Assembly: GCA_035620555.1 (NCBI GenBank)
Contig: DASPGQ010000226.1
Location: forward strand, 1 to 61,605
Length of the DNA: 61,605 nucleotides
From: Vicinamibacteria bacterium
Lineage (GTDB): Bacteria; Acidobacteriota; Vicinamibacteria; Marinacidobacterales; SMYC01
Reading direction: 5' to 3'
The translations under genes were made by a program, and so were the position numbers. Shown here in pieces: positions 43,482-61,605 of this stretch. The notes beneath the pieces were generated by a model. That model ran no database searches. It saw only the letters and a program-made list of their open reading frames with translations, and had not been told where the DNA came from. How positions within the stretch are numbered: position 1 is the stretch's first letter; each line of letters opens with the position of its first letter.

Positions 43482-44504
43482 ATGAACCGAACGAAGAAAA
43501 CGCGCTGGATACTCACCATCGCGGCAACCACGCTGGTCTCGGGGCTTTGTATCGGAGCGCTGGCGCACGTGGCGCGCCGGAGCGAAAGCCAGGAGAGCCT
43601 GCCCCTGACCGAGTCCCACCTGAAGTGGGTTCCCAGCTCGGCCACGCTCGCGGGCCATGTGAACCTTCGAGCCCTCGCCGAGAGTCCTCTGTTCGAGGCA
43701 TGGCGTCTTCGCGAAGAGGCCAGGACCGGGCTCGAGGCATTGAGCGAGTTGAGGCGACGGACGGGAATCGATCCGCTGACGGACCTCGACACCGCAACCT
43801 TCTCCGTGGTCGAGTCAGCACAGGCATCGCCGAATTCCCCGCCCGAGCATTGGGGCGTTTCCGTTCGGGGGGCGATCGATGGCACGCACCTGCTGCGGGA
43901 GCTTCGCAAACACGGTGAGGTCGTCTCCGGCGAGTACGAAGGCATTGCGGTGCACGAATTCACCGACCGACGCGGACGTGAGCTGGCCTTCGCGGTGGCA
44001 AGCGCCGATACACTCCTCGTGGGAGGGCCCGATTACCTGCGTCAAATGCTCGATGCCGGAGCCGGCAAAGAGCCGAGCGTGGGCCTCGAGACTCTCCTCG
44101 AAGGCATCGACGGACCGAGCCTCAGAAACGAGACTTTCTGGGTGGTTGGCAAAGCCTCGAAGACGATCGGAAGCCTCCTTTCGACTGGCCCCGGGTCCGA
44201 TCTGCCGTCGATTCGGTCGTTTGCGCTCTCGGGTCGAATCGCCCGCGACCTCCAGCTGAAGGCTCAGGGGAAAGCATCCGACGCCGTCGCGGCGCAGCAG
44301 CTTGCCGACGTGGCCCGAGGAATGGCGGCTCTTGGTCGACTCCGAGAGGGTATGGACCCCACGTTCCTCAGCGTCCTCGAATCGGTCTCGATCGCACAGC
44401 TCGACGATCGGATCGAGATATCCGTGACGGTGCCGAATGCGGCGATGGAGCGTCTTCTGGAGAGCAATCTCGAGAAAGCCCACCCCGATGGTAATTTACG
44501 CTAA
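43482..44504 (+). CDS. Hypothetical membrane-anchored periplasmic protein
   Basis: ORF trimmed to ATG 43482 (GGCGGAGGG upstream). MNRTKKTRWILTIAATTLVSGLCIGALA signal-anchor. No family recognised. Last gene of the ABC cluster. Confidence 0.6.
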   Translation: MNRTKKTRWILTIAATTLVSGLCIGALAHVARRSESQESLPLTESHLKWVPSSATLAGHVNLRALAESPLFEAWRLREEARTGLEALSELRRRTGIDPLTDLDTATFSVVESAQASPNSPPEHWGVSVRGAIDGTHLLRELRKHGEVVSGEYEGIAVHEFTDRRGRELAFAVASADTLLVGGPDYLRQMLDAGAGKEPSVGLETLLEGIDGPSLRNETFWVVGKASKTIGSLLSTGPGSDLPSIRSFALSGRIARDLQLKAQGKASDAVAAQQLADVARGMAALGRLREGMDPTFLSVLESVSIAQLDDRIEISVTVPNAAMERLLESNLEKAHPDGNLR

Positions 44505-45844
44505 TCGACGATGAGGCCCGGTACCTCGGGGATCGTTTGGTGCCCCAAGCTCGGCTCGACGAGACGCTCCTGGGGCCGGGCAAAGAGGTAACCCTGCCCG
44601 TAGGGAATCCCGAGCTCGAGGAGCGTGTGGAGCTCTTCGACTCGCTCGACTCCCTCGGCGATGACATCGGCACCAATATTGGTCGAGAGTGCTTGGATCG
44701 CTTTTAGCATTTCGCGCTTCACGAAGCTGGTATGGATGTCGCGCACCATCATCAAGTCGAACTTCAGGTACCGGGGGTTGAGGCGGACGATCTTCTCCAG
44801 GCCTGAGTAGCCGGCACCCATGTCGTCGATGGCGATGGAGAATCCCATGTCGGTGAACGTCTTCATCGCGTCGAGAAACAGGTCGTAGTTCTCGATCGCC
44901 AGCCGCTCGGTAATCTCCAGTACGATTCCTGAAGGGGAGAGCCCCTTCTGGTCGAGCAACCCGACGATCCGCTCTCCCTGGAACTCGGGGTCGCGAAGGG
45001 TCGTCGGTAACAGATTCACGAAGAGCTTGTGCCCTTGTTTGAGACGCGAGGCATTGCTGAAGGCGCGGCGGCGGCAGAGTCGGTCCAGCTCGAACTGTAG
45101 ATTCGCATCGCTGGCCAGGTCGAACATGACCTGAGGGCTCTCGTAGCGCGCGGCCCGGGGGCCGCGCGTCAGCGCCTCGAAACCGATCGTTTCGAGAGAC
45201 GTCAAGTCCAGAATCGGCTGGAAGACCGTGCGGACGTCCTCGTTGAGGATAATCCTCTGAAGGAGCTCCTTGCTCTTGGCCGCGAGGCGGTATTCCTGGT
45301 ATCTTGACATCGTTCGTGCCTCGTCGATGAGCTGGAGCACGAGTCGTTCCTCGTTGATGAGCGGATTGTGTAGCACCAGGCCGTAGCCGACCGCGACCTT
45401 GAACTTCCCCTTCAGATAGGGGCTGGTCATCCGCGACAGGTGCCGCGTCAAGTCGGCGTGAATCCGCTCGGCCATCGCCTCGAGCTCCGCCGCGCCCGAC
45501 AAGAACACGAGAAACGTATCCCCCCCGGGCTCGCTGACGGTGACGAGATCGTCGCGACGGAATTCGGAGGGCTTGTTGAGCATGAGGTTGGTGAGGAGAC
45601 TTCGGACCTGGTCGTGAATGAGATCTCCGTAGTCGTGCTCGATCTGGGCGAGATTGGATGCCTCGACGTAGAGAAGGGCGAGGCATCGATTCTCGGCGAG
45701 CATCTCGTGAATTTCGTCGGCATGCTCCCGGTAACACCGAATGGGCTCTCGCGCGGCGCGTACGCTTACGGACTCTGCGGAAGACTGCGCGCGTTCCGCC
45801 GCCTCGAAGACATTGCCGATCACGGCGGGCCTGGCAAGGCTCAC
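44501..45844 (-). CDS. Degenerate-GGDEF plus EAL domain protein (c-di-GMP phosphodiesterase type)
   Basis: EAL domain: FQPILDL...IGFEALTRG...VNLLP...VLEITER...AIDDMGAGYSGL...KFD...VIAEGVE...GQGYLFARP. Upstream domain carries GGDTF in place of GGDEF. The track ORF reaches TTG 46033, but codons 45845-46033 have reduced GC3. I prefer GTG 45844, preceded by GGGGAAG. Confidence 0.8.
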   Translation of the reverse strand: MSLARPAVIGNVFEAAERAQSSAESVSVRAAREPIRCYREHADEIHEMLAENRCLALLYVEASNLAQIEHDYGDLIHDQVRSLLTNLMLNKPSEFRRDDLVTVSEPGGDTFLVFLSGAAELEAMAERIHADLTRHLSRMTSPYLKGKFKVAVGYGLVLHNPLINEERLVLQLIDEARTMSRYQEYRLAAKSKELLQRIILNEDVRTVFQPILDLTSLETIGFEALTRGPRAARYESPQVMFDLASDANLQFELDRLCRRRAFSNASRLKQGHKLFVNLLPTTLRDPEFQGERIVGLLDQKGLSPSGIVLEITERLAIENYDLFLDAMKTFTDMGFSIAIDDMGAGYSGLEKIVRLNPRYLKFDLMMVRDIHTSFVKREMLKAIQALSTNIGADVIAEGVERVEELHTLLELGIPYGQGYLFARPQERLVEPSLGHQTIPEVPGLIVD

Positions 45845-46047
45845 GAGGTCTTCCCCTGGATCATGCCGCGATTCGACTCCCGGGCGACAACCTAGCAAGG
45901 CCCGTGCCCACGAGTTCCCGCCGGTGCGGGGATCGTGGATGGTATTGATTCCGTGGAGGTTGACCTCAGCGCCTGGCGGGAGTCGCGAAGGCGCCCTCGT
46001 ACCCAGGTGTGGTGTATGTCCCACGAATCCCAACGCCCTTATGCCGT

Positions 46048-46080: not shown

Positions 46081-46587
46081 ATGCTGTCCTTGATGGAGAT
46101 CATCCTCGCGCTCAAGAGGACTCCAATGTTCCAGGGAGTGCCCGGTGAGGGATTGAAGCGATTGTCCGATTTCATCCAGGAGAAGACCGTCCGGGCCGGC
46201 GAAGTGATTTTCCGGGAGGACGAGCTCGGCGAGGAGATGTACATCGTGCGGTCCGGCCGGGTCAGCGTACATCAGGAGGTAAAGGGGGGACGCGTGTCGT
46301 TGCTCGTAGTGGAGACGGGAGGCTACTTCGGCGAAATGGCGATCATCGACGACCTTCCACGCTCCGCCTCGGCGACGGCCGAAGTCGACACCAGCCTGTT
46401 CGTTCTTCACAAGACCGACTTCCGCTCGGCCGTCCAGGACTACCCGGACATCGCCTTCGAGATCCTGCGTGAGTTCAGCAGACGGTTGCGGCACGCCGAC
46501 CGCCGGCACCGCGAGCTGATGGACGAAGCCAATGCCGTTTCGACGATTCGAGCCAAAGAGGACCGTTCGGGAAAATCCGAGCCCTGA
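46081..46587 (+). CDS. Stand-alone cyclic-nucleotide-binding domain protein (no DNA-binding domain)
   Basis: LKRTPMFQGVPGEGLKRLSDF...GEVIFREDELGEEMYIVRSGRV...GGYFGEMAIIDDLPRSASATA is the canonical cNMP-binding beta-roll with its phosphate-binding cassette. The C-terminus has no HTH. Confidence 0.88.
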   Translation: MLSLMEIILALKRTPMFQGVPGEGLKRLSDFIQEKTVRAGEVIFREDELGEEMYIVRSGRVSVHQEVKGGRVSLLVVETGGYFGEMAIIDDLPRSASATAEVDTSLFVLHKTDFRSAVQDYPDIAFEILREFSRRLRHADRRHRELMDEANAVSTIRAKEDRSGKSEP

Positions 46588-46644
46588 CGGCGGAACCGGA
46601 GCTGGACTTCCGGTCGAACGGGAGCCGCACGAGGCGTCAGGGCT

Positions 46645-49257
46645 TTGAAACTCGCGAGAACCCTCGGCATCCTCGAAGCCGAGGTCGAATTGACGCTCCT
46701 GCTCGGGCTCACCCACTTCCTCGTGGCGGGGGCGCACTCTCTGTTCGACATCGGCGCGACGGCCCTTCTGATCGGCAACCTTGGACCGGATGCTTTGCCC
46801 CAGGTCTATTCGGCCAGCGCGATCGTATTGATCTTTGCGGGCCTCTTCGTGACTCCCCTCGTCGATCGCCTCGACCGTTCCCTGTTTTTCAGCCTGTTGC
46901 TCGCCGGTTCCGCGGCTCTAGTGCTCCTCACCTCGCAGGGCTCCGCCTACCGCGCTCTATACGTCGCGAGCTACCTGATGAAAGGGCTCTTCTTCCTTCA
47001 GTACTGGCTATTCGCGGGAGATCTTCTGGATCTGCGCCAGGCGAAGAGAGTATTCCCGGTGTTGCTCGGCTTCAGTCTCACCGGTGGCCTGGTGGCGAGT
47101 ATGGCCGCGGCGCAGATCCCACGATTTCTTCCCTCGGAGAGCCTGCTCGCTTTCTCCGGAGCCCTGATGGTTGCGGCGATCGTTCCCGTTCAATGGATAT
47201 CCCATCGCTGGCGCCGGCGCTTGCGTTACGCCGGAACGAGATCCCAGAGAGTCCCCTCCCTGGTTCACCGGATCAAGTCCGACATCGATGTCTCGTTCCA
47301 ATCGCCGCTGGTCAGAGCGCTTTCGCTCTACGTGTTTCTTCTCGCGCTGCTCGCTCAGATCCTCGATTTTCTGCTGGGCAAGGCCGCTCACGCCGCCTTC
47401 GCCGCGCCGAGTGGATCCGTTGCCGTCGAGGGACTCGCGAGCTTCTACGCTCTGCTGAACGCCGTGGTCATCGGCGTGGGAGCCCTCGTCCAGTTCTTCA
47501 TCGCCAACCGTCTCATCAACTCCGCGGGCGTCACCCGGGCTCAACTTCTCGCACCCATCACTTTTTTCGTCGTCTTCGCCAGCGCCAGCGTCGTGTGGCT
47601 CGCGGGCGGTGCTTTCTTCTTCACCGTCGTCGCCGCGAGAGCGATCCAGAGAGCATTTCGCATCTCGCTCGTTCGAACGTCGACCGACTTGATCTACAAC
47701 GCGATCCCGGGCGAGCGTCGCGGCCGCGCCAAGGCTTTCAAGGAGACACTCCTCGAGCCACTGGGCGTGCTCGCCGGCGGCCTGTTGCTCATGGCCAGCT
47801 CCGAGCTCCCACTTCAGTACGTTCTCGGCGGGGCGACGGGACTCTCGATCGTTCTCTTCGCCGCCACCGGCAAGCTCAAGGAACACTACATCGCGAGCCT
47901 GGTCCTGGTGCTCAAGGAGAGAAGTCGTTATCGATTCGCTTTTCCTTCGTTCGTCTCGCGGCAGGCCAGAACGCCTGCGGGGAAGACCGGCGTGAGTGGA
48001 CTGCGACGAGCTCTCGATGACGACGAGGCGTCGATCCGGCTCCTGGCCGTGGAAGTCGCCTCGGAGCTCAGAGAGCCGGAGGCCGCAACTCTGCTCGTCG
48101 ACCGGGTTCGCGACGAGCCCGATCCCCAGGTGCGCTCGCGAATGGTCTCGGCACTCGGAAGGATGGTTCGCAACCGCGGAGATCGCGCCGAGAGCGGATC
48201 CGCTACCGAAGTCGACCCCGCGGTGCGCGCCAGCGCCATGGAAACGCTGGCCCGGGACACGCTTCTTGCCGAGATGGGCAGGGAGACAAACGTGTCGCAG
48301 CCTAGCCGGGATAGCGCGCCTCGACGAGTCCTGGAGAACGGTGCGACGAGGAAACGCGCGCTCTTCGCGCTCGCGCGGAGCCAGGAAGAGGGGGCGCTCG
48401 AAAGGCTCGTTCATTACCTCGAGGAAGGCGACGGAGCGACACGACACGTCGCGGCGCGAGCGCTCGAGGGCTGCGGCGAGGCCGCGGTCGGCGTTCTCAC
48501 GCTCGCGCTCTGGAGCTCCGACGTCGAGGCACGCCGTTACGTCATCCGCGCCCTCGATCGAATCGGGACATCGAGCGCGCGCCAAGCGCTCCTGCCGGTT
48601 CTATCTCTGGAGGCGGAAGAGGCCTATTACGAGCTGCTGCGGCTCCAGGCGATTCAACATCTGCCGAGCAACCCCGCACTGGGCCTCCTCGAGGACTCCA
48701 TCGCCCAGAGAGTCCAGCTCGCTCGGGGAAACGCCCACCAGGTACTCAGAGCGGTGTTCATGGGTGAGCCGGGGATGCGTCTGATCCTCAGCAACTTGAA
48801 TCATCCCGACCGCTTCATTCGATCGAGCGCCCTCGAGGCGCTCGAGGTCCGCGTCGACACCGCCCTTCTCGGTGGGGTCTTGCCGCTATTCGAGCACGAC
48901 AGCCCGCGAGCGGTCGCCGAGCAAGGCGCCGAGCTCTTCGATTTCCCTTCGCGCTCCCCTCTCGATGCCCTTCTCGAGCTCACGCGCCATCGCTCGGCCT
49001 GGATTCGAGCGTGCGCCGTCTACGCCGTCGGCCATATGGGAACTCTCGCGTGCCTCGAACGACTCGAACAGCTTACGAGAGACGATTACGAGCTCACGAG
49101 GCTCAACGCCGTCGAAGCGATCGGACGGCTGGGAGACGAAACCAGCCTCCGGTTGCTCGGTCGCCTCGAGACCGGCGGGGACGAGACGATGAAAGCCTAC
49201 ACGCTCGAGGCCATCGAGGCGATCCGTCGCCGGCAGTCGGCACGGTCGGCGGGATAG
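46645..49257 (+). CDS. TLC/Npt-like (ATP:ADP-antiporter-family MFS) membrane domain fused to C-terminal HEAT repeats, paralog 1
   Basis: TTG start. Polytopic N-terminal half with YWLFAGDLLDLRQAKRVFPVLLGFSLTGGLVAS (compare TLC family LFWxFANxxxxxxEAKRxY...G). C-terminal HEAT-like repeats (DPQVRSRMVSALGRM, DVEARRYVIRALDRIG, SAWIRACAVYAVGHMG, TRLNAVEAIGRLGD). Confidence 0.75.
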   Translation: MKLARTLGILEAEVELTLLLGLTHFLVAGAHSLFDIGATALLIGNLGPDALPQVYSASAIVLIFAGLFVTPLVDRLDRSLFFSLLLAGSAALVLLTSQGSAYRALYVASYLMKGLFFLQYWLFAGDLLDLRQAKRVFPVLLGFSLTGGLVASMAAAQIPRFLPSESLLAFSGALMVAAIVPVQWISHRWRRRLRYAGTRSQRVPSLVHRIKSDIDVSFQSPLVRALSLYVFLLALLAQILDFLLGKAAHAAFAAPSGSVAVEGLASFYALLNAVVIGVGALVQFFIANRLINSAGVTRAQLLAPITFFVVFASASVVWLAGGAFFFTVVAARAIQRAFRISLVRTSTDLIYNAIPGERRGRAKAFKETLLEPLGVLAGGLLLMASSELPLQYVLGGATGLSIVLFAATGKLKEHYIASLVLVLKERSRYRFAFPSFVSRQARTPAGKTGVSGLRRALDDDEASIRLLAVEVASELREPEAATLLVDRVRDEPDPQVRSRMVSALGRMVRNRGDRAESGSATEVDPAVRASAMETLARDTLLAEMGRETNVSQPSRDSAPRRVLENGATRKRALFALARSQEEGALERLVHYLEEGDGATRHVAARALEGCGEAAVGVLTLALWSSDVEARRYVIRALDRIGTSSARQALLPVLSLEAEEAYYELLRLQAIQHLPSNPALGLLEDSIAQRVQLARGNAHQVLRAVFMGEPGMRLILSNLNHPDRFIRSSALEALEVRVDTALLGGVLPLFEHDSPRAVAEQGAELFDFPSRSPLDALLELTRHRSAWIRACAVYAVGHMGTLACLERLEQLTRDDYELTRLNAVEAIGRLGDETSLRLLGRLETGGDETMKAYTLEAIEAIRRRQSARSAG

Positions 49258-49261
49258 TTGG

Positions 49262-50008
49262 TTAGGTCTCCTCGAGCTGTCCGGCGACCGCCCTCGCCGC
49301 CTCCGACACCTTCTCGGGATCGCCCAGGTAGTAATGTCGGATCGGCACCAGATCGTCGTTCAGCTCGTATACCAGGGGAACTCCCGTCGGGATGTTCAAC
49401 TCGGCGATCTCGTCATCGGGGACGTGATCGAGGTACTTCACCAGAGCTCTGAGACTGTTGCCGTGAGCCGCGATCAGGACTCTTCGTCCCGATGCGACTT
49501 CGGGGGCGATCGATTTTCGCCAGCACGGGAGGAAGCGCTCGACCGTTTCCTTGAGACTCTCCCCCAGAGGTACCTCGGCGGGCGCCAGAGAGGCATAGCG
49601 AGGGTCGCGGCGGGGATTTCGCGGATCGGACGGATCGAGCGGGGGAGGCGGCGTATCATAGCCTCGCCGCCAGGTCTGGACCTGTTCCAAACCATAGCGC
49701 TTCGCGGTCTCTGCCTTGTTCAAACCCTGGAGAGCTCCGTAGTGGCGCTCGTTCAAACGCCAGCTTCGGTGGACGGGAATCCACATGAGGTCCATCTCGT
49801 CGAGAACGAGCCAGAGCGTCCGTATCGCTCGTTTGAGCACCGAAGTGAACGCCACGTCGAAGAAATAGTCCTGAGCGGCCAGGGTTCGGCCCGCCTCGCG
49901 AGCCTCGGTGACGCCTTTGTCGGTCAGGTCCACATCGGTCCATCCGGTGAAGCGATTGGCTTTGTTCCAGAGACTCTCGCCGTGACGAAGGAGCACGAGT
50001 TTCTTCAT
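49262..50008 (-). CDS. gpmA: 2,3-bisphosphoglycerate-dependent phosphoglycerate mutase
   Basis: ORF trimmed to ATG 50008. [29 protein letters not shown]...[17 protein letters not shown]...[10 protein letters not shown]. Confidence 0.95.
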
Positions 50009-50018
50009 GGCGGCTCGT

Positions 50019-51623
50019 TCATGCCGTCGCCGGCGCGGCGGCACGCACGTCGTCGTCGACGTCCCCGGCAAATCGCTCGAAGTTCTTGTCGAACATGCCC
50101 GCGAGCTTTCTGCCCTGGGCATCGTAGGCATCGGGATCCGACCAGGTCGAGCGGGGATCGAGGATTCCCGGAGGTACATCGGGACAGGATTGCGGGACTT
50201 GGAACCCGAAGATAGGATCGGTGGTGGTCGGGACGGCGTCGAGGGCCCCGCTCAACGCGGCGCGAACGATGGCCCGGGTGTGCGACAGCTTCATTCGGTG
50301 ACCGGAGCCGTAAGCGCCTCCCGTCCAACCGGTGTTCACGAGCCAGGTCACGAGCCGGTGCCGACTCAACCGCTCGCCGAGCATCTTGGAGTAGACCGCG
50401 GGCTTGCGCGACATGAAGGGGGCACCGAAGCAGGCGCTGAAGGTGGCTTGAGGCTCGTCGATACCCCGCTCGGTGCCGGCGACCTTCGCCGTGTAGCCCG
50501 AGAGGAAATGATACATGGCCTGTTGGGGATTGAGCTTCGCGACCGGTGGGAGCACGCCGAACGCGTCGGCTGCCAGCATGAGAACGGTTTTTGGATGCCC
50601 GGCCCAGCCGGTTCTGGAGACGTTGGGAATGTGAGAAACGGGATAGGACGCACGCGTGTTCTCGGTGAAACTGTCGGAGTCGAGGTCGAGCCGCCGGGTC
50701 TTGGTATCGATGACGACGTTCTCGAGGATGGTTCCGAACATTCGGGTGGTGGCGTAGATTTCCGGCTCGCCCTCGGAAGACAGCCGAATGACCTTGGCAT
50801 AGCAACCGCCCTCGAAGTTGAAGACCCCCTGGTCGCTCCATCCATGCTCGTCGTCACCGATGAGGACACGGTCGGGATCGGCGGATAGCGTCGTCTTCCC
50901 CGTCCCCGACAGGCCGAAGAAGATGGCCACGTCGTCCTCGTCCTTGCCGAAGTTGGCGGAACAGTGCATCGGCAGCACGCCGTCGGGAGGGAGCAAGTAG
51001 GTCATGACGGTCAGGATCGACTTCTTGATCTCCCCGGCATAGTCGGTGCCTCCGATGATGACTTCCTTGCGTGCGAAGTTGAGCATGACGAACACTTCCG
51101 AGCGGGTCCCGTCCTCCTCGGGAACGGCCTGGAACCGGGGAGCGCAGATCACGGTGAACTCGGGGACGTGAGACGCGAGCTTGTCGGGGTTCTTCTCGCG
51201 AACGAACATGTTCCTGGCAAACAGGTTGTGCCACGCTCGCGTGTTGATGATCCGAATCGGAATCTTGTAGTCGGGGTGCGTTCCGACATAGCAGTCCTGG
51301 ACGTAGAGATCGCGACCCCTGAGGTACGCGGTCAGCCTGGCTCGCAGTCTGTCGTACTGCGACGTCTCGCAAGGCTTCGCGACGTCCCACCAGATGTGTT
51401 TTTCGCTCCGCGGCTCGCGAACGATGTATTTGTCGTTGGGTGAGCGGCCCGTATATTGGCCGGTATGAACGACGAGAGGGCCCCGGTGAGCGATGAAGCC
51501 CTCGCGGCGCTGAATGGCATGCTCGTAGAGGGCTGCGCTCGAGAGGTTCCACCAGACGGTGGCGTCGAAGATTCCGTGGTTATCGAGTCCGAAACGGCTG
51601 CGAAAAGCTCCCTGTTCCTCCAT
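50019..51623 (-). CDS. pckA: Phosphoenolpyruvate carboxykinase (ATP)
   Basis: [15 protein letters not shown]...[13 protein letters not shown]...LIGDDEHGW...[10 protein letters not shown]. Confidence 0.95.
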
Positions 51624-51703: not shown

Positions 51704-54349
51704 TCATGACGAGGGGGGCACCCGTCGCTCGAGCTCGGAGAACCAGTCGACGACCACGTGAAGCCGCGTGGCCTCGCTCCCCCGATCCGTTTGTACCATG
51801 ATGAACCCGGTGCCGTCTCGCGTTTTGTCGTAGCCCGCATAGGGAGCACCGGCTTCGTCGAAGGGCGCTTCGAACAGCGGGCGTGGCTTTCCCGCCCGAA
51901 ACTCGGGCTCGGTCTCGATCGAAACCACCATCATGGAGTCCTCGTCGCGGTAGAAGAGCTCCTCGCCGTCGCGGCCCCAGACCGGCTCGTGGCCGCCCTC
52001 GGTCGAGATCGGCCCACTACCTTTCAGCTCCCCGGAAGGAAATTCACGCACGTAGATCTCGTCCCTGATGCCGTTCTCGTCGGATACGTATGCCAGGTAC
52101 CGGCCGTCGGGAGAGAACATGGCGGCGCTTTCGTTGAACGGTGTCGCGAGAAAAGGCTCGGTGCGGCCGTTCACCCAAAGGACGACGTCGAACTGAGTGT
52201 CCGGAGACAACTCGGTAAACGCCAGGTGGCGCCCGTCCGGCGACCAGGAATTGGGGAACTGAGGATTGGGACTGGTCGTGAGGCGAACCGCCGGGGACGA
52301 TCCATCGATGGCCTTAGTAAAAAGGTTCACGATCCCATCTGACTCCCGACCGAACGTCATCTCGCGACCGTCGGGCTTCCAGATCGCCCCGCCGCTGTTT
52401 CCTTCGAACGTGACGCGTCTCATCGACCCGCGATGGGTGTCCAAGAGGAAGATATCGGTCGATTCCCCTTCGGTAACCGTCACGAGGAGCTGATCGCCCG
52501 ACGGAGAGAGTCGGGGCACCTGATAGCCGCGCGAGGTGCGGGTCAGGAGGCTGGCGCCGCCGTTGCGATCGATGAGAAGCAGCCGGCCCGAAGCCTCGTT
52601 CGCCCCATCCCCCCCCTCGGGGACGTAGACGAGCGTGCCATCGCTCGCCAAATCGTAGAAAGATGCACCGGTCAGATCGTCGAATCCCACGCCCGAGAGC
52701 ATCTCGATGGCCGCGCCGCGGATCTCGAGTGCCCGCGAATCGAATCGAGCCGCCATCAGGCTCGTCCCCCGGGCGAATACCAGGTGGCCCCTGGGCGAGT
52801 AGCGCGCGTAGGATCCGTCCTCCACGACGACGCGAGTCTCGGTCTCGCCTGACGCCACGACCTCGATTCGAAACCGTCCACCCGGCATGAGGCTGGTAAA
52901 GAGCACGTGTCCATCGGGCAATACGGTGGGCCATCGATGGCTTCGGGTTTCATCCCCGAGGGTGGTAAGACCGACCATTGCGGGATTGCCGGTCCCCATC
53001 GCCGACAACCCCCCCATCGTGAGGGGAGCGAGAACGATCATACTCGAGCCCCAGTTCGCTCCCCGCGGACTCGGAGCGTCGACCAGCGATTCGACCGCGA
53101 ACCCCGAAAGCGACATGCGTTGCAGCTTCCCTTCGGAGAAAAAGCCCAGCGAGTCTCCGTCGGGAGAAAAAAAAGGGCTCGAGGCACCGGTTGTTCCCGG
53201 AAGCGGAGTCGGATCGAGGCGGTCCATCGCCCGCAGGCGCAGCTCGGTCGTCTCGCCACGGCGGGCGGTGTAGACGAGCCGCGTGCCGTCAGGGGACAGC
53301 GCGAGAGGAGAGCCCGCCTCGAGCGCGACGGGCTCGGTCGGCGGAACGTCGATGGTGAAGACGCGCCCGCTTTTCAGCGACCGGACCTGTCCATCCCAGA
53401 CGCGTCCCACTACGAAACCGACGAGCAGACCGGCCGCCGCGAGAGCGAGCGCGGCCCAGATGGGCATTTCGTGCTTGGGGGGCTCGAGCGGGCCTTCGAG
53501 TGCCTCTTCGATCTCGAGCCGTGCGTCTTCGATGTCGTGGAGCCGCCGGTGCAGCTCCTTGCGAAGGCAACGCTGCAGGAGATGGCGAATGTTGCGCGGC
53601 ACCCATGCGGGAAGCGCCCCGAAGTCGGGCTCGGTGGAGATGACCGCGGCGAGAATGTCGGAGCTCGTTTTCCCCTCGAACGGATGCCGCCCCGAAAGAG
53701 CTTCGAAAAAGCATACCCCGAAGGACCAGATATCGGTGCGCTTGTCGAGACTCTGCCCCCGTGCCTGTTCCGGGCTCATGTAAGCGAGCGTTCCGAGAAT
53801 GTCTCCTTCCATCGTCATCCGGTCCGGCGCTGTCACGGTCTTCCCGCTCGGACCGAGCGGGGTCTCGGCCAGAAGCTCTTTGGCCAGGCCGAAATCCAGA
53901 ACTTTCACGAGGCCCTGCGGCGTCACCTTGACATTGGCCGGCTTCAGGTCGCGGTGGATGATTCCTCTCTCGTGCGCGGCGCCCAGCCCGGCGGCTATCT
54001 GGCGAAACAAATCGAGAGCTTCCCGAAGCGGAAGAGGCCCTTGCTGCATCTTCTCGGCGAGAGTCAACCCTTTGACGAGATCGAGGACGAGAAAAAGCAC
54101 ATCGCCGTCCCTCTCGAGTCCGTGGAGAGTACCGATATTGGGATGACTCAGCGAGGCGAGAAGCACCGCCTCACGTTCGAAGCGCGCGACGCGCTGAGGG
54201 TCCCGGGCAAGATCGTCGGGGAGGACCTTGATGGCCACTTCCCGCTTGAGGTGAGTGTCCCGGGCGAGGTAGACCTCGCCCATTCCGCCCGCGCCGAGTG
54301 TATCGAGGATCTCGAACCCGCCGAGACGACTCTTAGGCTCGAGGGGCAC
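51704..54349 (-). CDS. Ser/Thr protein kinase with one TM and a C-terminal TolB-like beta-propeller region
   Basis: GAGGMGEVYLARD...VAIKVL...IIHRDLKPANV...DFGLAK...YMSPEQ. A TM segment (IWAALALAAAGLLVGFVV), then repeated SPDG...F motifs typical of TolB/WD40-like propellers. Confidence 0.9.
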   Translation of the reverse strand: MPLEPKSRLGGFEILDTLGAGGMGEVYLARDTHLKREVAIKVLPDDLARDPQRVARFEREAVLLASLSHPNIGTLHGLERDGDVLFLVLDLVKGLTLAEKMQQGPLPLREALDLFRQIAAGLGAAHERGIIHRDLKPANVKVTPQGLVKVLDFGLAKELLAETPLGPSGKTVTAPDRMTMEGDILGTLAYMSPEQARGQSLDKRTDIWSFGVCFFEALSGRHPFEGKTSSDILAAVISTEPDFGALPAWVPRNIRHLLQRCLRKELHRRLHDIEDARLEIEEALEGPLEPPKHEMPIWAALALAAAGLLVGFVVGRVWDGQVRSLKSGRVFTIDVPPTEPVALEAGSPLALSPDGTRLVYTARRGETTELRLRAMDRLDPTPLPGTTGASSPFFSPDGDSLGFFSEGKLQRMSLSGFAVESLVDAPSPRGANWGSSMIVLAPLTMGGLSAMGTGNPAMVGLTTLGDETRSHRWPTVLPDGHVLFTSLMPGGRFRIEVVASGETETRVVVEDGSYARYSPRGHLVFARGTSLMAARFDSRALEIRGAAIEMLSGVGFDDLTGASFYDLASDGTLVYVPEGGDGANEASGRLLLIDRNGGASLLTRTSRGYQVPRLSPSGDQLLVTVTEGESTDIFLLDTHRGSMRRVTFEGNSGGAIWKPDGREMTFGRESDGIVNLFTKAIDGSSPAVRLTTSPNPQFPNSWSPDGRHLAFTELSPDTQFDVVLWVNGRTEPFLATPFNESAAMFSPDGRYLAYVSDENGIRDEIYVREFPSGELKGSGPISTEGGHEPVWGRDGEELFYRDEDSMMVVSIETEPEFRAGKPRPLFEAPFDEAGAPYAGYDKTRDGTGFIMVQTDRGSEATRLHVVVDWFSELERRVPPSS

Positions 54350-54514: not shown

Positions 54515-55012
54515 GTGATGCGATACTCTCGATTCGTCGTGGCGTTCACGCTCATCGGAGCGACCACGGCCACTGCTCAGACGGTTCGGGTCCGCTGGGA
54601 GCGGACCGTCGACTTCAGTCGATACCAAAGCTATATGTGGATCGAGGGCGCGCGGGCACTCGACGATCAGGCCCATCGCCTCGTCGTCGACAGCACCGAC
54701 GCGACGCTCGCGGTGGCGGGTATCTTCAAGGACGAGTTCGAGCCCGATCTCTACGTCACCTACTACGCTTCCGTGGACGAGAGCTTCCAGATCAGCGGAG
54801 GTTACCGGCGCGACTGGAACGACGCGCGCGCGGTGACGGTCGAGACCCACGCCGCGGGAACGCTCGTCATCGATTTGGTGGATGCCGCCGAGAACCAGCT
54901 CGTCTGGCAGGCTTCCGCCACCGCGGCTCTCACCAATGACATGAAGAAGAACCGCGACAAGGTTCGCGAAGCTTTGAGCAAGATGTTCGCCGACTTTCCC
55001 CCGTCGAACTAA
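54515..55012 (+). CDS. DUF4136 domain exported protein
   Basis: Signal peptide MMRYSRFVVAFTLIGATTATA. ...AAGTLVIDLVDAAENQLVWQASATAAL... matches the DUF4136 pattern as I recall it. Confidence 0.7.
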   Translation: MMRYSRFVVAFTLIGATTATAQTVRVRWERTVDFSRYQSYMWIEGARALDDQAHRLVVDSTDATLAVAGIFKDEFEPDLYVTYYASVDESFQISGGYRRDWNDARAVTVETHAAGTLVIDLVDAAENQLVWQASATAALTNDMKKNRDKVREALSKMFADFPPSN

Positions 55013-57934: not shown

Positions 57935-57997
57935 AAGGGCGGGGGATCATAACATGCCTGGAAGTCTCATCGAGAACCTGATAACAAGAAGCGCTTC

Positions 57998-60766
57998 ATG
58001 CCTTTCTTGCGACTCGTGAACGTCCACCCCGGTGAGGGTCGTCGTGTCTTCGGGATGTTTGCCCTTCTCGGGCTCATCATCGCCACGAGCTACATCTTGA
58101 AGCCGGTTCGGAGCTCTGTTTTTCTGAGCCAGTTCGGCGCCGAGAGACTTCCCTACGTCTATCTCCTGGTAGCCCTGGTGCTCGGATTCGTCGCCGCGGG
58201 GTTCGCCAGGCTTTCCTCGCGCACGAACGTGGTTCGGCTCTTCGTCGGTGCCGCGGCGTTGTTCGCTTCCCACATCGTCCTGTTCTGGATCGCCCTCGTG
58301 ATGGATTGGATTTGGACGGGATTCGTCTTCTACGTCTGGGTGAGCATCTTTACGGCGCTCATGCCGTCACTGTTTTGGCTCCTCGCGAACTACGTCTTCT
58401 ACTCCAACGAGGGCCGACGCCTGTTTCCGGTGGTCATGGCGGGAGGGCTGCTCGGTTCCATTGCCGGCGGGGCGCTCACGTCGCTCCTCGTACCCGTCGT
58501 GGGAACATCCGGATTACTTCTTTCCGCGGCCGGTCTCCTGATCCTCGTCGCGTTCCTCGTTCGCTGGAACGTGGCCCGAGAGGCGGAGCGCATCACCGAG
58601 CGTCGCTTCGACCTCGCTCGGAGCGAGCGAAGCCACGCCGTCTCGGATGAATCGAGTCCCCTGGCGCTCGTCGCCCGGTCGCGCTACCTCAGACTCCTCG
58701 CCGCCCTCATCGTGCTTGCGACTCTGGTCTCCACGCTGGTCGACTACCAGTTCAACGTTGCCGCCGAGGACAGCTTCCCGACCCGAGACGCGCTCACTCG
58801 GTTCTTCGGAACGTTCTTCGCAGGGATCAACGTCGTGGCTTTCGCACTCCAGCTGCTCGTGGCAGGACGACTGCTCGGGCGGTTCGGGGTCGCCGCCGGT
58901 CTCGTTCTGCTACCCGCGGCTCTGCTCGGGAGCTCCTTGTTTCTTTTCGCCATGCCGTCGCTTGTGAGTGCCGCGCTCGTCAAGGCCTCCGATGACGGTC
59001 TCAGCAACTCGGTGAATCGGGCAAGTGTGGAGATCTTGTATCTGCCCGTCTCCCTGGCGTTGAAGAATCGGCTCAAGGCGTGGCTCGACATGTTCGTCGA
59101 GCGCGTCAGCCGCGGCCTGGGTGGCCTCACCTTGCTGGCCGCGACGACCCTGCTGTCGATGCCGCCAACTCAGATCGGGCTCCTCGTCGCTTTCCTGACC
59201 GTTCCCTGGCTCGTTCTCGTCGTGTGGTTGAACCGCGAGTACGTGAACACCTTTCGTGACTCCATCGCGCGACGAGACATCACCGACCTCACGGCGCACC
59301 TGACCGACCCCGCGAGTCTGTCCGTTTTCCAACAGGTCCTCGCGGGCGACGATACCCGGGAGATCCTGTACGCTCTCGAGCTTCTCGCCGGAACCGAGGA
59401 TGAGCTGCTGCTGCGACAGGCGGCGAGCTTGACGGATCATCCGAGCGCGGAAATCCGAAGAGCCGCATTCCGGCTGCTGCGCGGGGCGGCGGCTTCGCCG
59501 ATCGACCAGCTGGAACGCCGCGTCCTGGACGAAGAGCCACGGGTGGCGGCCGAGGCATTTGCGCTCTTCCTTCGCGTCGATCCCGACGGCGCCAATCGTA
59601 CGCTCGACTTCGTGATCGAGCGAAACGACGTCGAGAGAATCCGGGCAGTACTCGATTGTCTCGAGCAGTCGGAGACGACCCTTTCCGACCTCGTGCTCGA
59701 GCGCATCGTTCGCGACCGCGTGTACGATGAGACGGCCGGGGCGCGAATGCTGGCAGCACAAGCCCTCGGATTCTTGACGACGCCGCCCGACGCGCTCCCG
59801 AGCTGGCTGGTGAGATTACTGGGCGACCCGGACATCGAAGTCGCGCGCCGCGCCGCCCGCAGCGCCGGCCGGTTGCGCGTCACCGAGGCTTTCCCTGCAC
59901 TGGTCGAGCAGCTTCGCCGGCCTCCGCTCCGGGTCGAGGCGCGACGGGCTCTCGCTAGGTACGGGCCCGAGGCTCTCGACGGGCTCTCGGGTTTGCTTCG
60001 GGACGACACTCAGGAAATCGATCTTCGCCGGGCCATTCCTCAGGCGGTCGCGGAGATCGACGGGCAGGACGGAGTCGAGGTGCTGTTCGACATCCTCCCT
60101 CAGGACGATCAGCGCCTCCATTATCAAGCCATCAAAGGACTTTCCAAGCTTCGATCGCGCAATCCCACCTTGCGCTTCCCCCGTACCGAGGTCGAGCGCC
60201 TCGTCGAGCACGAGCGGGCCGCGCTCCTCGATCTCGCGCGCCTCACGGCGTCGATTCGCCGTTACCCGCCCGAAGAGGGCACGAGCCATGCGCTCCTGCT
60301 CCTCGTCCTCGACGAGCGCATCGAGTTCACCCGAGAACGGATCTTTCGCCTCCTCGGTCTTCAGTATGCCCAAGGCGAGATCGCGAGCGTCTTCAACCGC
60401 CTGGCGCACGCGCGACCGGCGATCCGCTCCGCCGCGCTCGAGTACCTCGCCAATCTGCTGTCGAAGAGCCATCGACGCAGCCTGTTGCCTCTGCTCGAGG
60501 CGGAGAGCTCACCTTCGATCTACCGGCACGGCCTCGAGCTCACGGGGGTTCGTGCTCCCGCGTTTGCCGAAGCATTGGGGCGACTCGCGCTCTCCACCGA
60601 CGACTGGCTCGCGGCATGCGCCATCACTGTGGCGGGTGACAAGGGCCTGGCGGCGAGCCTCCCCGGGCTCGAGGAGCTACGGGAGCACAAGTCGCCTCGG
60701 GTTCGCGAGGCGGTGAAGCATGCCGTGAAGCCCGCTTTGGGCTCACGCGGCCCGGGTCGGCCTTGA
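57998..60766 (+). CDS. TLC/Npt-like (ATP:ADP-antiporter-family MFS) membrane domain fused to C-terminal HEAT repeats, paralog 2
   Basis: FYVWVSIFTALMPSLFWLLANYVFYSNEGRRLFPVVMAGGLLGSIAGG (TLC-type signature region). About 11-12 TM helices. C-terminal HEAT-like repeats (SAEIRRAAFRLL, DIEVARRAARSAGRL, RPAIRSAALEYLANL, SPRVREAVKHAV). Confidence 0.75.
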   Translation: MPFLRLVNVHPGEGRRVFGMFALLGLIIATSYILKPVRSSVFLSQFGAERLPYVYLLVALVLGFVAAGFARLSSRTNVVRLFVGAAALFASHIVLFWIALVMDWIWTGFVFYVWVSIFTALMPSLFWLLANYVFYSNEGRRLFPVVMAGGLLGSIAGGALTSLLVPVVGTSGLLLSAAGLLILVAFLVRWNVAREAERITERRFDLARSERSHAVSDESSPLALVARSRYLRLLAALIVLATLVSTLVDYQFNVAAEDSFPTRDALTRFFGTFFAGINVVAFALQLLVAGRLLGRFGVAAGLVLLPAALLGSSLFLFAMPSLVSAALVKASDDGLSNSVNRASVEILYLPVSLALKNRLKAWLDMFVERVSRGLGGLTLLAATTLLSMPPTQIGLLVAFLTVPWLVLVVWLNREYVNTFRDSIARRDITDLTAHLTDPASLSVFQQVLAGDDTREILYALELLAGTEDELLLRQAASLTDHPSAEIRRAAFRLLRGAAASPIDQLERRVLDEEPRVAAEAFALFLRVDPDGANRTLDFVIERNDVERIRAVLDCLEQSETTLSDLVLERIVRDRVYDETAGARMLAAQALGFLTTPPDALPSWLVRLLGDPDIEVARRAARSAGRLRVTEAFPALVEQLRRPPLRVEARRALARYGPEALDGLSGLLRDDTQEIDLRRAIPQAVAEIDGQDGVEVLFDILPQDDQRLHYQAIKGLSKLRSRNPTLRFPRTEVERLVEHERAALLDLARLTASIRRYPPEEGTSHALLLLVLDERIEFTRERIFRLLGLQYAQGEIASVFNRLAHARPAIRSAALEYLANLLSKSHRRSLLPLLEAESSPSIYRHGLELTGVRAPAFAEALGRLALSTDDWLAACAITVAGDKGLAASLPGLEELREHKSPRVREAVKHAVKPALGSRGPGRP

Positions 60767-60809
60767 CAGGGCAAAACCGAGTGAGGTATCCGTCGCCTGG
60801 AGGTCGAAG

Positions 60810-61605
60810 ATGAGGTGCTGGATTGTTGCGGCGCTCATCGCCTTCACCGGCGGACTTCTCCGAGCGCAGGAGTCACACGTCGTCATCGTCTCGATCGAGG
60901 GTTTTGCCGCTGCTCGGCTCGAGGATTCGGAGCTGGAGCTTCCCAACCTGAGGGGAATCACGCGGTCGGGCGCCCGGGCCGAGGGCATGGAGACCGTCTA
61001 CCCCGCGACCGACCATCCCGCTCACGTCTCTCTCGTGACCGGTGTGCCGCCACGCCAGCATGGGGTCCTCGGCAACCGGCTCTTGAACCGCAGGACCGGA
61101 GAGTATTTTCACGTCACGAACCTGCCCCGGTCGAAAAGCATCCGGGTACCCACGCTGTTCGACGCCGCCAAGGCGAAGGGGCTGCGCACGGCATCGTTCT
61201 TCTGGCCGGGAACTCGCGACGACCCCGCCATCGACCACGCCATCCCCCTGGTCCTGACCGGCGAGGGAAAGGCAGATATCGCCGGGGCGAATCCGCAGTT
61301 TCTGGACGAGCTTCGCGAAAACGGAGTGCCCATCGATTTGTTCTACCAATGGTACGACGACCTCGCGCTGCAGCAGACGGCGGACAGGGTCTTGACGCGG
61401 GCAGCGATCTACGTGCTCACGACTTACCGGCCCCACCTCCTCCTGCTGCGCCTGCCGGCTCCGGACCGCTACCAACATCAGTACGGCCCGCAGCATTACC
61501 TGTCCAAGGCGGCGCTCACGGCGTCGGACTACAATGTCGGACTCGTCCGACGCGCCATCGAAGACTCGGGCCTCGCCAATCAGACGACACTCGTGGTGGT
61601 GTCCG
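60810..61605 (+). CDS. Exported alkaline-phosphatase-superfamily enzyme, nucleotide pyrophosphatase/phosphodiesterase (NPP) type; runs off the right edge
   Basis: Not in the track (no stop within the window). My translation from ATG 60810 (GGAGG 6 nt upstream): MRCWIVAALIAFTGGLLRAQESHVVIVSIEGFAAARL...METVYPATDHPAHVSLVTGVPPRQHGVLGN...ASFFWPG. The P-x-T-x-P-x-H...TG..P..HG..N pattern is typical of the type I phosphodiesterase/NPP family. Confidence 0.7.
   Translation, partial: MRCWIVAALIAFTGGLLRAQESHVVIVSIEGFAAARLEDSELELPNLRGITRSGARAEGMETVYPATDHPAHVSLVTGVPPRQHGVLGNRLLNRRTGEYFHVTNLPRSKSIRVPTLFDAAKAKGLRTASFFWPGTRDDPAIDHAIPLVLTGEGKADIAGANPQFLDELRENGVPIDLFYQWYDDLALQQTADRVLTRAAIYVLTTYRPHLLLLRLPAPDRYQHQYGPQHYLSKAALTASDYNVGLVRRAIEDSGLANQTTLVVVS

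Follow-up and report, generated by a model that had tools for sequence, protein, structure and literature searches.

The DNA analysed here is a stretch of 61,605 nucleotides (the window) from a metagenome contig of a member of the Vicinamibacteria (Acidobacteriota). It encodes a 922-residue protein in which a membrane domain of the NTT/TLC nucleotide-transporter type is fused to HEAT repeats (NTT-HEAT). This gene is divergent from a pair that encodes an Omp85-like outer-membrane barrel and an exported protein-kinase-like protein (PKL), and it is followed by a gene for an exported protein related to the nucleotide pyrophosphatases/phosphodiesterases (NPP) (Table 1). An initial annotation of the window had proposed that these four genes might form a module for periplasmic nucleotide supply and turnover, and the 63-bp divergent region, the gene lengths and the coordinates that it gave were all recovered by us. 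The genes are real rather than chance open reading frames (ORFs), since their homologs number in the hundreds to thousands. The initial annotation had also treated the Omp85-like and kinase-fold genes as one unit; in keeping with this, the most likely start codon of PKL, an ATG at 56684, lies only 2 nt past the stop codon of the Omp85-like gene, which argues for a tight, translational coupling of the two. The protein read from this start agrees in length (554 aa) and sequence with the deposited protein P0121. On the other strand, the NPP-like gene begins 43 nt past the stop codon of NTT-HEAT. We report below that the association of NTT-HEAT with exported, putatively ATP-binding enzymes recurs across many bacterial phyla.

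Table 1. Features of the window discussed in the text, those of the principal cluster first
Feature	Position	Strand	Basis or description
PKL, 554 aa	55020..56684	-	signal peptide, kinase-like core (~residues 115-435), C-terminal beta-sandwich
Omp85-superfamily outer-membrane barrel, 415 aa	56687..57934	-	signal peptide, short helical N-terminus, PF01103
Divergent intergenic region, 63 bp	57935..57997	.	between Omp85-like gene and NTT-HEAT
NTT-HEAT ORF, 922 aa	57998-60766	+	
NTT/TLC-type 12-helix membrane domain, residues 1-428 of the 922-aa protein	57998..59281	+	Pfam TLC, PDB profile, Foldseek
Cytoplasmic (predicted) HEAT-repeat domain, residues 438-910 of the 922-aa protein	59309..60727	+	HEAT_2, HEAT, model
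NPP-like exported protein (alkaline-phosphatase superfamily), N-terminal 265 codons, cut by window end	60810..61605	+	PF01663
cNMP-binding gene before second NTT-HEAT paralog	46081-46587	+	PF00027, 77.9 bits
Second, very divergent NTT-HEAT paralog, 870 aa	46645-49257	+	HEAT_2, 83 bits; family HMM
GGDEF-like/EAL gene, divergent from second NTT-HEAT paralog	44501-46033	-	
Ser/Thr kinase fused to PD40 beta-propeller region	51704-54349	-	
DUF4136 protein	54515-55012	+	
Phosphoenolpyruvate carboxykinase (PEPCK)	50019-51623	-	
Histidine-phosphatase (His_Phos; phosphoglycerate-mutase-like) gene	49262-50179	-	

The membrane half of the 922-aa protein is recovered by the Pfam TLC model (PF03219) with 54.3 bits against a cutoff of 21 (residues 99-320), and the MFS_1 model of the major facilitator superfamily (MFS) reaches 20.9 bits, under its cutoff of 33.4. 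A profile built from the membrane domains of 12 family members and searched against PDB sequences retrieved Chlamydia pneumoniae NTT1 (9j3n, E 1.8e-30) and Arabidopsis NTT1 (AtNTT1; 9j3j, E 4.9e-22), with the next PDB sequence following at 7.6e-5. The AlphaFold2 model of the protein has a predicted local distance difference test (pLDDT) score of 84.4 and comprises 12 membrane helices and, C-terminal to these, helical repeats over ~480 residues. Its top five Foldseek matches are all NTT1 entries (9j3n, 9j3m, 9j3l, 9j3o and 9j3j; E 7e-9 to 2e-7, TMt 0.63-0.70), the first generic MFS match appearing at 4.4e-5. The NTT1 structures themselves (PDB 9j3n, 9j3j) were reportedly solved by Lin et al. 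in Nature in 2025. Pfam, the PDB profile and the Foldseek ranking thus agree in ruling out a generic MFS identity for the membrane half, and for this reason the TLC/Npt assignment made in the initial annotation stands; the signature motif quoted there, PSLFWLLANYVFYSNEGRRLFPVVMAGG, is present at residues ~124-150. Its reading of the C-terminal half as HEAT repeats was equally sound: Pfam detects HEAT_2 (59.2 bits) and HEAT (24.9 bits), and the domain is modelled as all-helical repeats, with pLDDT mostly 80-95 and PDB matches to alphaRep, CAND1 and PP2A-A. As 12 transmembrane helices are predicted, and both the N-terminus and the central loop contain basic residues, this domain should face the cytoplasm. 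With the canonical NTT1/Npt1 carriers, such as C. pneumoniae NTT1 and AtNTT1, the protein shares the fold, these being its best structural and profile matches, and several motifs, namely FW(L/G)(L/F)AN, EA(K/R)R(L/F), an acidic position of the E385 type, a basic position of the K527 type and the K...D pair in 'K(A)xxD(V)'. It differs from them in its sequence (~16-20% identity), in its shorter membrane domain (~425 aa as against ~500) and in the possession of the HEAT domain. Within the NTT/TLC nucleotide-transporter family (TC 2.A.12), the 922-aa protein accordingly falls into the NTT-HEAT clade, as a 12-helix inner-membrane carrier.

The gene as such is no novelty, since it belongs to a published fusion family and has already been named by NCBI. 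NTT-HEAT fusions were described by Major, Embley & Williams (2017, Genome Biol Evol; PMC5381601). There they form a monophyletic clade, widespread in free-living bacteria including Acidobacteria and functionally uncharacterised, in which a domain that binds cyclic nucleoside monophosphates (cNMPs) is often encoded downstream of, or fused to, the carrier. NCBI names the identical deposited protein P0001 'Npt1/Npt2 family nucleotide transporter', the Joint Genome Institute (JGI) names such proteins 'ATP/ADP translocase/HEAT repeat protein', and ATP:ADP antiporter is also in use. The window carrier and its listed homologs (~900-930 aa) have the same architecture as this published clade, an N-terminal NTT/TLC domain followed by C-terminal HEAT repeats (PF13646, PF02985). 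The window lineage departs from the clade as depicted there in having the NPP-like gene inserted after the carrier and before the cNMP-binding gene, and in the presence of a second, divergent paralog 9 kb away. It is therefore the context and not the gene that matters, the carrier being an ordinary member of a published, functionally blank family. In the passages of that paper covered by a term search, Omp85-like barrels, exported kinase-fold proteins, exported PPDK_N proteins (see below) and phosphoesterases are not mentioned as neighbours, and no relevant paper on a periplasmic kinase, an exporter of ATP or a link to Omp85 emerged from literature searches; the conserved partnership between NTT-HEAT and exported enzymes that bind ATP appears not to have been reported.

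The first of these enzymes, PKL, has no Pfam or NCBIfam family, the Pfam search giving solely a weak sub-threshold match to HipA_2. The family is nevertheless large: an exhaustive profile search yielded 3,949 representatives at 50% identity with E<=1e-3, 2,844 with E<=1e-10 and 1,189 with E<=1e-30. In an alignment of 37 PKL sequences from many phyla, with 24-40% identity, G124, G128, K142, D273, N278 and D298 do not vary, and E156 is conserved in 34. These residues match the glycine loop, the beta3 lysine, the alphaC glutamate, the catalytic D-x4-N and the DFG motif of kinases. The AlphaFold2 model (pLDDT 73.8) points in the same direction, as its top Foldseek matches are all kinases, with Fam20C the best, followed by CtkA of Helicobacter pylori and PI4KIIalpha. 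The homologs have typical Sec signal peptides that end right before a conserved (K/R)FYPDDP, and from this heuristic reading of signal peptides we infer that PKL is exported. Thus, the predicted catalytic motif is well supported and the modelled fold assignment moderately supported, and PKL is probably an exported, putatively active phosphotransferase. Some members (P0382, P0439, P0481, P0434 and P0392) have C-terminal extensions of 200-600 residues. The extra regions of the longer members (742-1158 aa) contain no Pfam domain and have no similarity to neighbourhood proteins, and as Rosetta-stone fusions they were uninformative. The partner of PKL matches PF01103 with 52.7 bits and the NCBIfam model NF047779 with 80.9 bits, the latter under its cutoff. 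Like the known Omp85 members without POTRA domains, it has a 16-strand-type PF01103 barrel with a short N-terminus, and Pfam detects no POTRA domain in it or in its longer homologs. As it scores ~30 bits against the models for BamA, TamA and TamL, the cutoffs of which are 297-625, and has no POTRA domain, it is not BamA, TamA or TpsB. Unlike the known POTRA-less members, it has an exported kinase-fold protein as its invariant partner.

To place this arrangement in context we compared 80 species-level genome loci anchored on NTT-HEAT, whose carriers are 26-91% identical to that of the window, by means of tblastn and all-against-all clustering of ORFs, counting neighbours within 10 kb. A subset of 43 loci has at least 8 kb on both sides of the carrier. 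A second set of 80 metagenome loci was anchored on PKL, and in these NTT genes were sought with a family hidden Markov model (HMM). In 34 of the 80 loci NTT-HEAT has both the Omp85-like and the PKL gene as neighbours, and in 39 it has one or both; in the well-flanked subset both are found in 21 of 43. The positive loci come from Acidobacteriota, Latescibacterota, Zixibacteria, Nitrospirales, Krumholzibacteriia, KSB1, Ignavibacteriales, Rhodothermales and Bacteroidota, that is, from at least nine phylum-level groups. The converse survey gave a comparable picture, with an Omp85-like gene directly upstream of PKL in 39 of 41 PKL-anchored loci with enough upstream DNA, and an NTT(-HEAT) gene in 8 of the 11 flanked on either side by at least 4 kb and in 27 of the 43 for which one flank is that long. 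The order of the genes varies. The pair is divergent from the carrier in the window, where the 63-bp region is 97% identical to its counterpart in a close relative (locus L001), and this arrangement is kept, with gaps of 103-297 bp, in relatives whose PKL is 62-72% identical. In Nitrospirales the pair lies downstream of the carrier, and in loci of the Fibrobacteres-Chlorobi-Bacteroidetes (FCB) group the genes are on a single strand with gaps of a few bases. One zixibacterial locus (L011) is a tight co-directional operon encoding Omp85, PKL, an exported 427-aa protein, NTT-HEAT, a cNMP-binding protein and a PAP2-family protein. The 63-bp gap of the window has no sigma-70 consensus promoter, and promoter and terminator scans of this gap and of the whole 54.3-61.6 kb region returned nothing exceeding the shuffled background.

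Since the association holds from both anchors and survives rearrangement at 24-40% protein identity, it argues for a functional coupling of NTT-HEAT with the Omp85/PKL pair. The functional link that had been suspected between the carrier and this pair is in this respect strengthened by a neighbourhood conserved across many phyla in varied gene orders. Alternatively, NTT-HEAT and Omp85/PKL might act independently and be adjacent merely through shared ancestry of an envelope-related region or through co-transfer. The incomplete linkage from either anchor would be expected in such a case, as would the insertions seen between them in Acidobacteriota, which include a gene for a multihaem cytochrome/TPR protein, a DUF4136 gene and a TonB-dependent receptor gene. 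However, synteny that is not under selection should decay, and this adjacency has outlasted rearrangements of both order and strand across nine or more phylum-level groups, with the FCB-group genes closely packed besides. We consider independent action of these proteins highly improbable.

The second exported enzyme was found in eight of the 80 NTT-HEAT loci (L037, L045, L056, L060, L061, L067, L069 and L071), none of which has Omp85/PKL. Six of these are from Bacteroidota, one is labelled Deferribacteres/KSB1 and one is from the Melioribacteraceae. It is a PPDK_N protein of ~970 aa (e.g. L061:14029-16935, minus strand), encoded next to NTT-HEAT. Its signal peptide is clear, its N-terminal region is rich in Cys, and its AMP/ATP-binding domain scores 78-91 bits (cutoff 27). 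In these loci the region is bordered by two exported class-A beta-lactamase-like proteins. Two unrelated exported ATP-binding folds, PKL and PPDK_N, thus occur beside a single carrier family in a total of 47 of the 80 loci, and this recurring pairing suggests a deliberate delivery of ATP outside the cytoplasm.

A kinase outside the cytoplasm must be supplied with a phosphoryl donor, and the only conserved transporter of these clusters is of the NTT family, which is known for ATP/ADP exchange; hence we favour a reading in which the carrier is a cNMP-regulated nucleotide exchanger that supplies ATP to extracytoplasmic phosphotransferases. Our probability for this inferred reading is roughly 0.45. 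The carrier would move ATP out and ADP, possibly together with phosphate, in. Given the gradients of a free-living cell such an exchanger would export ATP and take back ADP, and as the window host is free-living the direction would, unlike that of canonical NTT1, be export rather than energy parasitism. The exported ATP would serve as the phosphoryl donor for PKL in the periplasm, and the site or target of PKL may be the Omp85-like barrel or the outer membrane. The role of PKL would fall, in Bacteroidota, to an exported ATP-grasp enzyme of the PPDK_N type. The cytoplasmic HEAT domain might dock the cNMP-binding protein, whereby export would be gated by a cyclic nucleotide. Exported phosphoesterases (NPP-like, metallophosphoesterase and PAP2) would be accessories that remove nucleotides or reverse the phosphorylation. 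More tentatively, and with somewhat less confidence than in the exchanger itself, we envisage that diderms of many phyla could possess a dedicated extracytoplasmic phosphorylation system of this kind, in which cNMP-gated ATP/ADP exchange by NTT-HEAT fuels PKL/Omp85 or PPDK_N, with the phosphoesterases as the reverse or clean-up arm.

Two known systems offer parallels. The periplasm is held to be devoid of ATP, and for this reason Escherichia coli LpxT takes undecaprenyl pyrophosphate as its phosphoryl donor (PMC2229476). The proposed system would resemble that of LpxT in the transfer of a phosphoryl group to an envelope component on the periplasmic side, and some clusters indeed encode a PAP2-family protein; it would differ from it in bringing a nucleotide donor to the periplasm. 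In eukaryotes, the Golgi casein kinase Fam20C, together with the ATP exporter ANKH and ENPP1, likewise combines a kinase outside the cytosol with carrier-supplied ATP, and the NPP-family enzyme ENPP1 processes nucleotide exported via ANKH (PMC7371198). This is an analogy and not homology, as the carriers are of unrelated families and only the general kinase fold is common to the two, with a fold match that is weak.

Several observations weigh against ATP supply by NTT-HEAT. Free ATP in the periplasm would leak through porins. The linkage has gaps: about half of the NTT-HEAT loci have neither PKL nor a PPDK_N protein within 10 kb, three of the 11 well-flanked PKL loci have no NTT gene, and two loci (L161 and L162) retain NTT-HEAT, the NPP-like gene and the cNMP-binding gene with no Omp85/PKL nearby. 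The kinase assignment has weak points too, as the fold matches of PKL are low (E 3e-4 to 1e-2, TM 0.2-0.5) and its profile matched no PDB sequence even at E 10, so that, together with the sub-threshold HipA_2 score, a sequence-level link to known kinases was discarded; the signal peptide of the window PKL is moreover short and has no basic n-region. No function has been reported for NTT-HEAT proteins in the literature that we searched. The carrier scores 49.7 bits against TIGR00769, the NCBIfam model of NTP/NDP exchange transporters, far under the cutoff of 387.2, and it is, judged by its sequence, a distant NTT branch and not a canonical exchanger. Four conserved charged residues, K155, E245, E385 and K527, are reported to be important in AtNTT1 (PMC4256464). 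We located their equivalents with the 9j3j alignment, in which a chain offset of 84 was verified by the spacing of the residues. K155 aligns with Y55 of the 922-aa protein, in a weakly aligned stretch, and E245 with S116, so that in contrast to canonical NTT1 both equivalents are uncharged. E385 corresponds to D249, a residue kept by at least 90% of the family, and R372, a conservative change, stands in for K527. Only two of the four charged residues are therefore kept, and these merely conservatively, and with the other two lost the substrate may not be ATP/ADP. Three of these four residues are likewise absent from certain microsporidian NTTs that are functional (PMC4256464), and a nucleotide substrate is therefore still compatible with the loss. 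Finally, the genes for response regulators, histidine kinases, PP2C and EAL proteins that lie downstream fit a signalling role equally well.

The evidence that bears on such a role comes chiefly from the cNMP-binding gene, which is the most conserved neighbour of NTT-HEAT (60 of 80 loci). It is usually located directly downstream of the carrier and is usually followed in turn by response-regulator or histidine-kinase genes, which occur in 47 and 39 of the 80 loci, respectively. The copy expected downstream of the window carrier would fall beyond the window end. In L001, the carrier of which is 91% identical, it follows the NPP-like gene, the order being NTT-HEAT, NPP, cNMP-binding, REC and REC-SpoIIE, with an EAL gene nearby. 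In five PKL-anchored loci (L108, L109, L118, L144 and L151) the gene convergent with PKL encodes a triple fusion of NTT, HEAT and cNMP-binding domains of ~1,240 aa. The second paralog of the window is only 23% identical to the first and is recognised by the NTT-HEAT family HMM (E 3e-47) and the membrane-domain HMM (E 3.5e-31), as well as by Pfam HEAT_2 though not by TLC. It also has a cNMP-binding gene directly upstream, and the two genes (46081..49257) probably belong to the same system. Loci L081, L087, L095, L096, L103, L104 and L142 likewise have a comparable second NTT-HEAT gene downstream of PKL.

These genes raise the alternative that the cluster is a signalling device, in which NTT-HEAT transports or senses cAMP, cGMP or a similar molecule, or is a transceptor, and the HEAT domain and cNMP-binding protein feed response regulators, histidine kinases, PP2C and EAL proteins, with Omp85/PKL as the envelope output or input. 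Besides the prevalence of the cNMP-binding gene, which in some lineages is fused to the carrier (PMC5381601), and of the regulatory genes, such a device would account for the cNMP-binding and EAL genes that precede the second paralog and for the loss of two of the canonical charged residues related to ATP/ADP. On the other hand, no NTT is known as a carrier of cyclic nucleotides or as a receptor, a gated ATP exporter would equally be expected to have a regulatory cNMP-binding partner, and two unrelated exported ATP-binding enzymes beside the carrier are left unexplained. We accordingly regard a purely signalling device as unlikely, and well behind ATP export by a cNMP-gated carrier.

The NPP-like gene, the fourth component of the module envisaged in the initial annotation, proved not to be a core member of the cluster. 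The fragment in the window matches Phosphodiest (PF01663) with 132 bits and is 96% identical to a full-length 447-aa protein in L001, which itself scores 154 bits. Its N-terminus, MRCWIVAALIAFTGGLLRAQ followed by E, resembles a Sec signal, as do the N-termini of its homologs. The family assignment and the export signal that had been claimed for it thus hold, and it is the role as a nucleotide hydrolase that is doubtful, because the catalytic Thr is replaced by Asp: YPATDHPAH aligns gap-free to YPTKTFPNH of ENPP1, with Asp at the position of the Thr nucleophile. In SIEGF, further, Glu replaces the first metal-ligand Asp (the motif sites lie at residues about 27-31 and 62-76). The D..H and DH metal ligands are conserved in the full-length L001 protein, the corresponding part of the window copy lying beyond the window end. 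Members of the subclade at 57-68% identity have D or E at the nucleophile position and more distant homologs have T. We know of no enzyme of the alkaline-phosphatase superfamily with an acidic nucleophile. As its own nucleophile is substituted, the protein is doubtful as a canonical NPP hydrolase. A tblastn search with the fragment found the gene in one of the 80 NTT-HEAT loci (L001) and in none of the 80 PKL loci. Two metagenome contigs have orthologs with 63-67% identity in the interval from NTT-HEAT to the cNMP-binding gene, with no Omp85/PKL within 7-10 kb, and in other close relatives an unrelated SBP-SLT gene occupies the position. Synteny in relatives therefore bears out the pairing of Omp85/PKL with NTT-HEAT but not the inclusion of NPP; the conserved four-gene module is ruled out, orthologs being found beside NTT-HEAT in close relatives alone, and the distribution of the NPP-like gene marks it as an insertion, specific to one lineage, that separates the cNMP-binding gene from the carrier.

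A number of clusters do encode exported phosphoesterases with a different fold. A lipoprotein metallophosphoesterase is encoded directly upstream of the NTT genes in 19 of the 80 loci, and a PAP2 protein occurs in four, which lends some support to an exported phosphoesterase as a replaceable accessory of the cluster; the extracytoplasmic partner that had been anticipated is thus retained in kind, though not in the person of NPP. These enzymes also invite the view that the cluster serves nucleotide scavenging, with NTT-HEAT as an importer of nucleotides that phosphoesterases free from extracellular nucleic acids or dinucleotides, and with the barrel possibly aiding the passage of solutes across the outer membrane. 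Import would conform with the precedent that every characterised NTT imports nucleotides, as in parasites (PMC5381601 and PMC4256464). Yet the far stronger link of the carrier to an exported kinase-fold protein with an intact core, or to an ATP-grasp enzyme, would go unexplained, and an antiporter would cost a free-living cell cytosolic ATP. The NPP-like protein, moreover, has no Thr nucleophile, and nucleotidases of the metallophosphoesterase type usually yield nucleosides, which are no known NTT substrates. Scavenging consequently appears to us a doubtful account of these clusters, and ATP supply to exported phosphotransferases by NTT-HEAT is still the reading that we prefer.

Some further features of these loci deserve mention. 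A stand-alone NTT/TLC gene (~440 aa, TLC 80-86 bits, no HEAT repeats) is often located directly upstream of NTT-HEAT, as in L013, L031, L034, L035 (8516-9829), L044, L048, L054, L059, L070, L075 and L076; many clusters therefore encode two tandem NTT-type carriers. An exported family of ~427 aa with no Pfam match lies between PKL and NTT-HEAT in the Zixibacteria and Ignavibacteriales loci L009, L011 (8696-9979), L015, L025, L029 and L074, a position held by the lipoprotein metallophosphoesterase in 19 other loci. In the window, the genes between the two NTT-HEAT genes include those for the Ser/Thr kinase-PD40 protein, the DUF4136 protein, PEPCK and His_Phos, and the last two remain near NTT-HEAT as a pair in several Acidobacteriota relatives. 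PADLOC gave no match for any of the NTT-HEAT, NPP-like, Omp85-like and PKL proteins, and an anti-phage defence system was consequently dropped from consideration.

In conclusion, a carrier from a family best known for the movement of ATP recurs, in free-living bacteria of many phyla, beside exported enzymes that are expected to need ATP. If the coupling is real, it would provide the first functional handle on NTT-HEAT proteins, which are also found in cyanobacteria, Chlamydia trachomatis and oomycetes, and likewise a handle on a family of exported kinase-like proteins, of ~1,200-2,800 clusters at 50% identity, for which Pfam has no model. The view that periplasmic processes are free of ATP would then become directly testable, and a dedicated system for extracytoplasmic phosphorylation, if true, would overturn the assumption that the periplasm has no supply of ATP.

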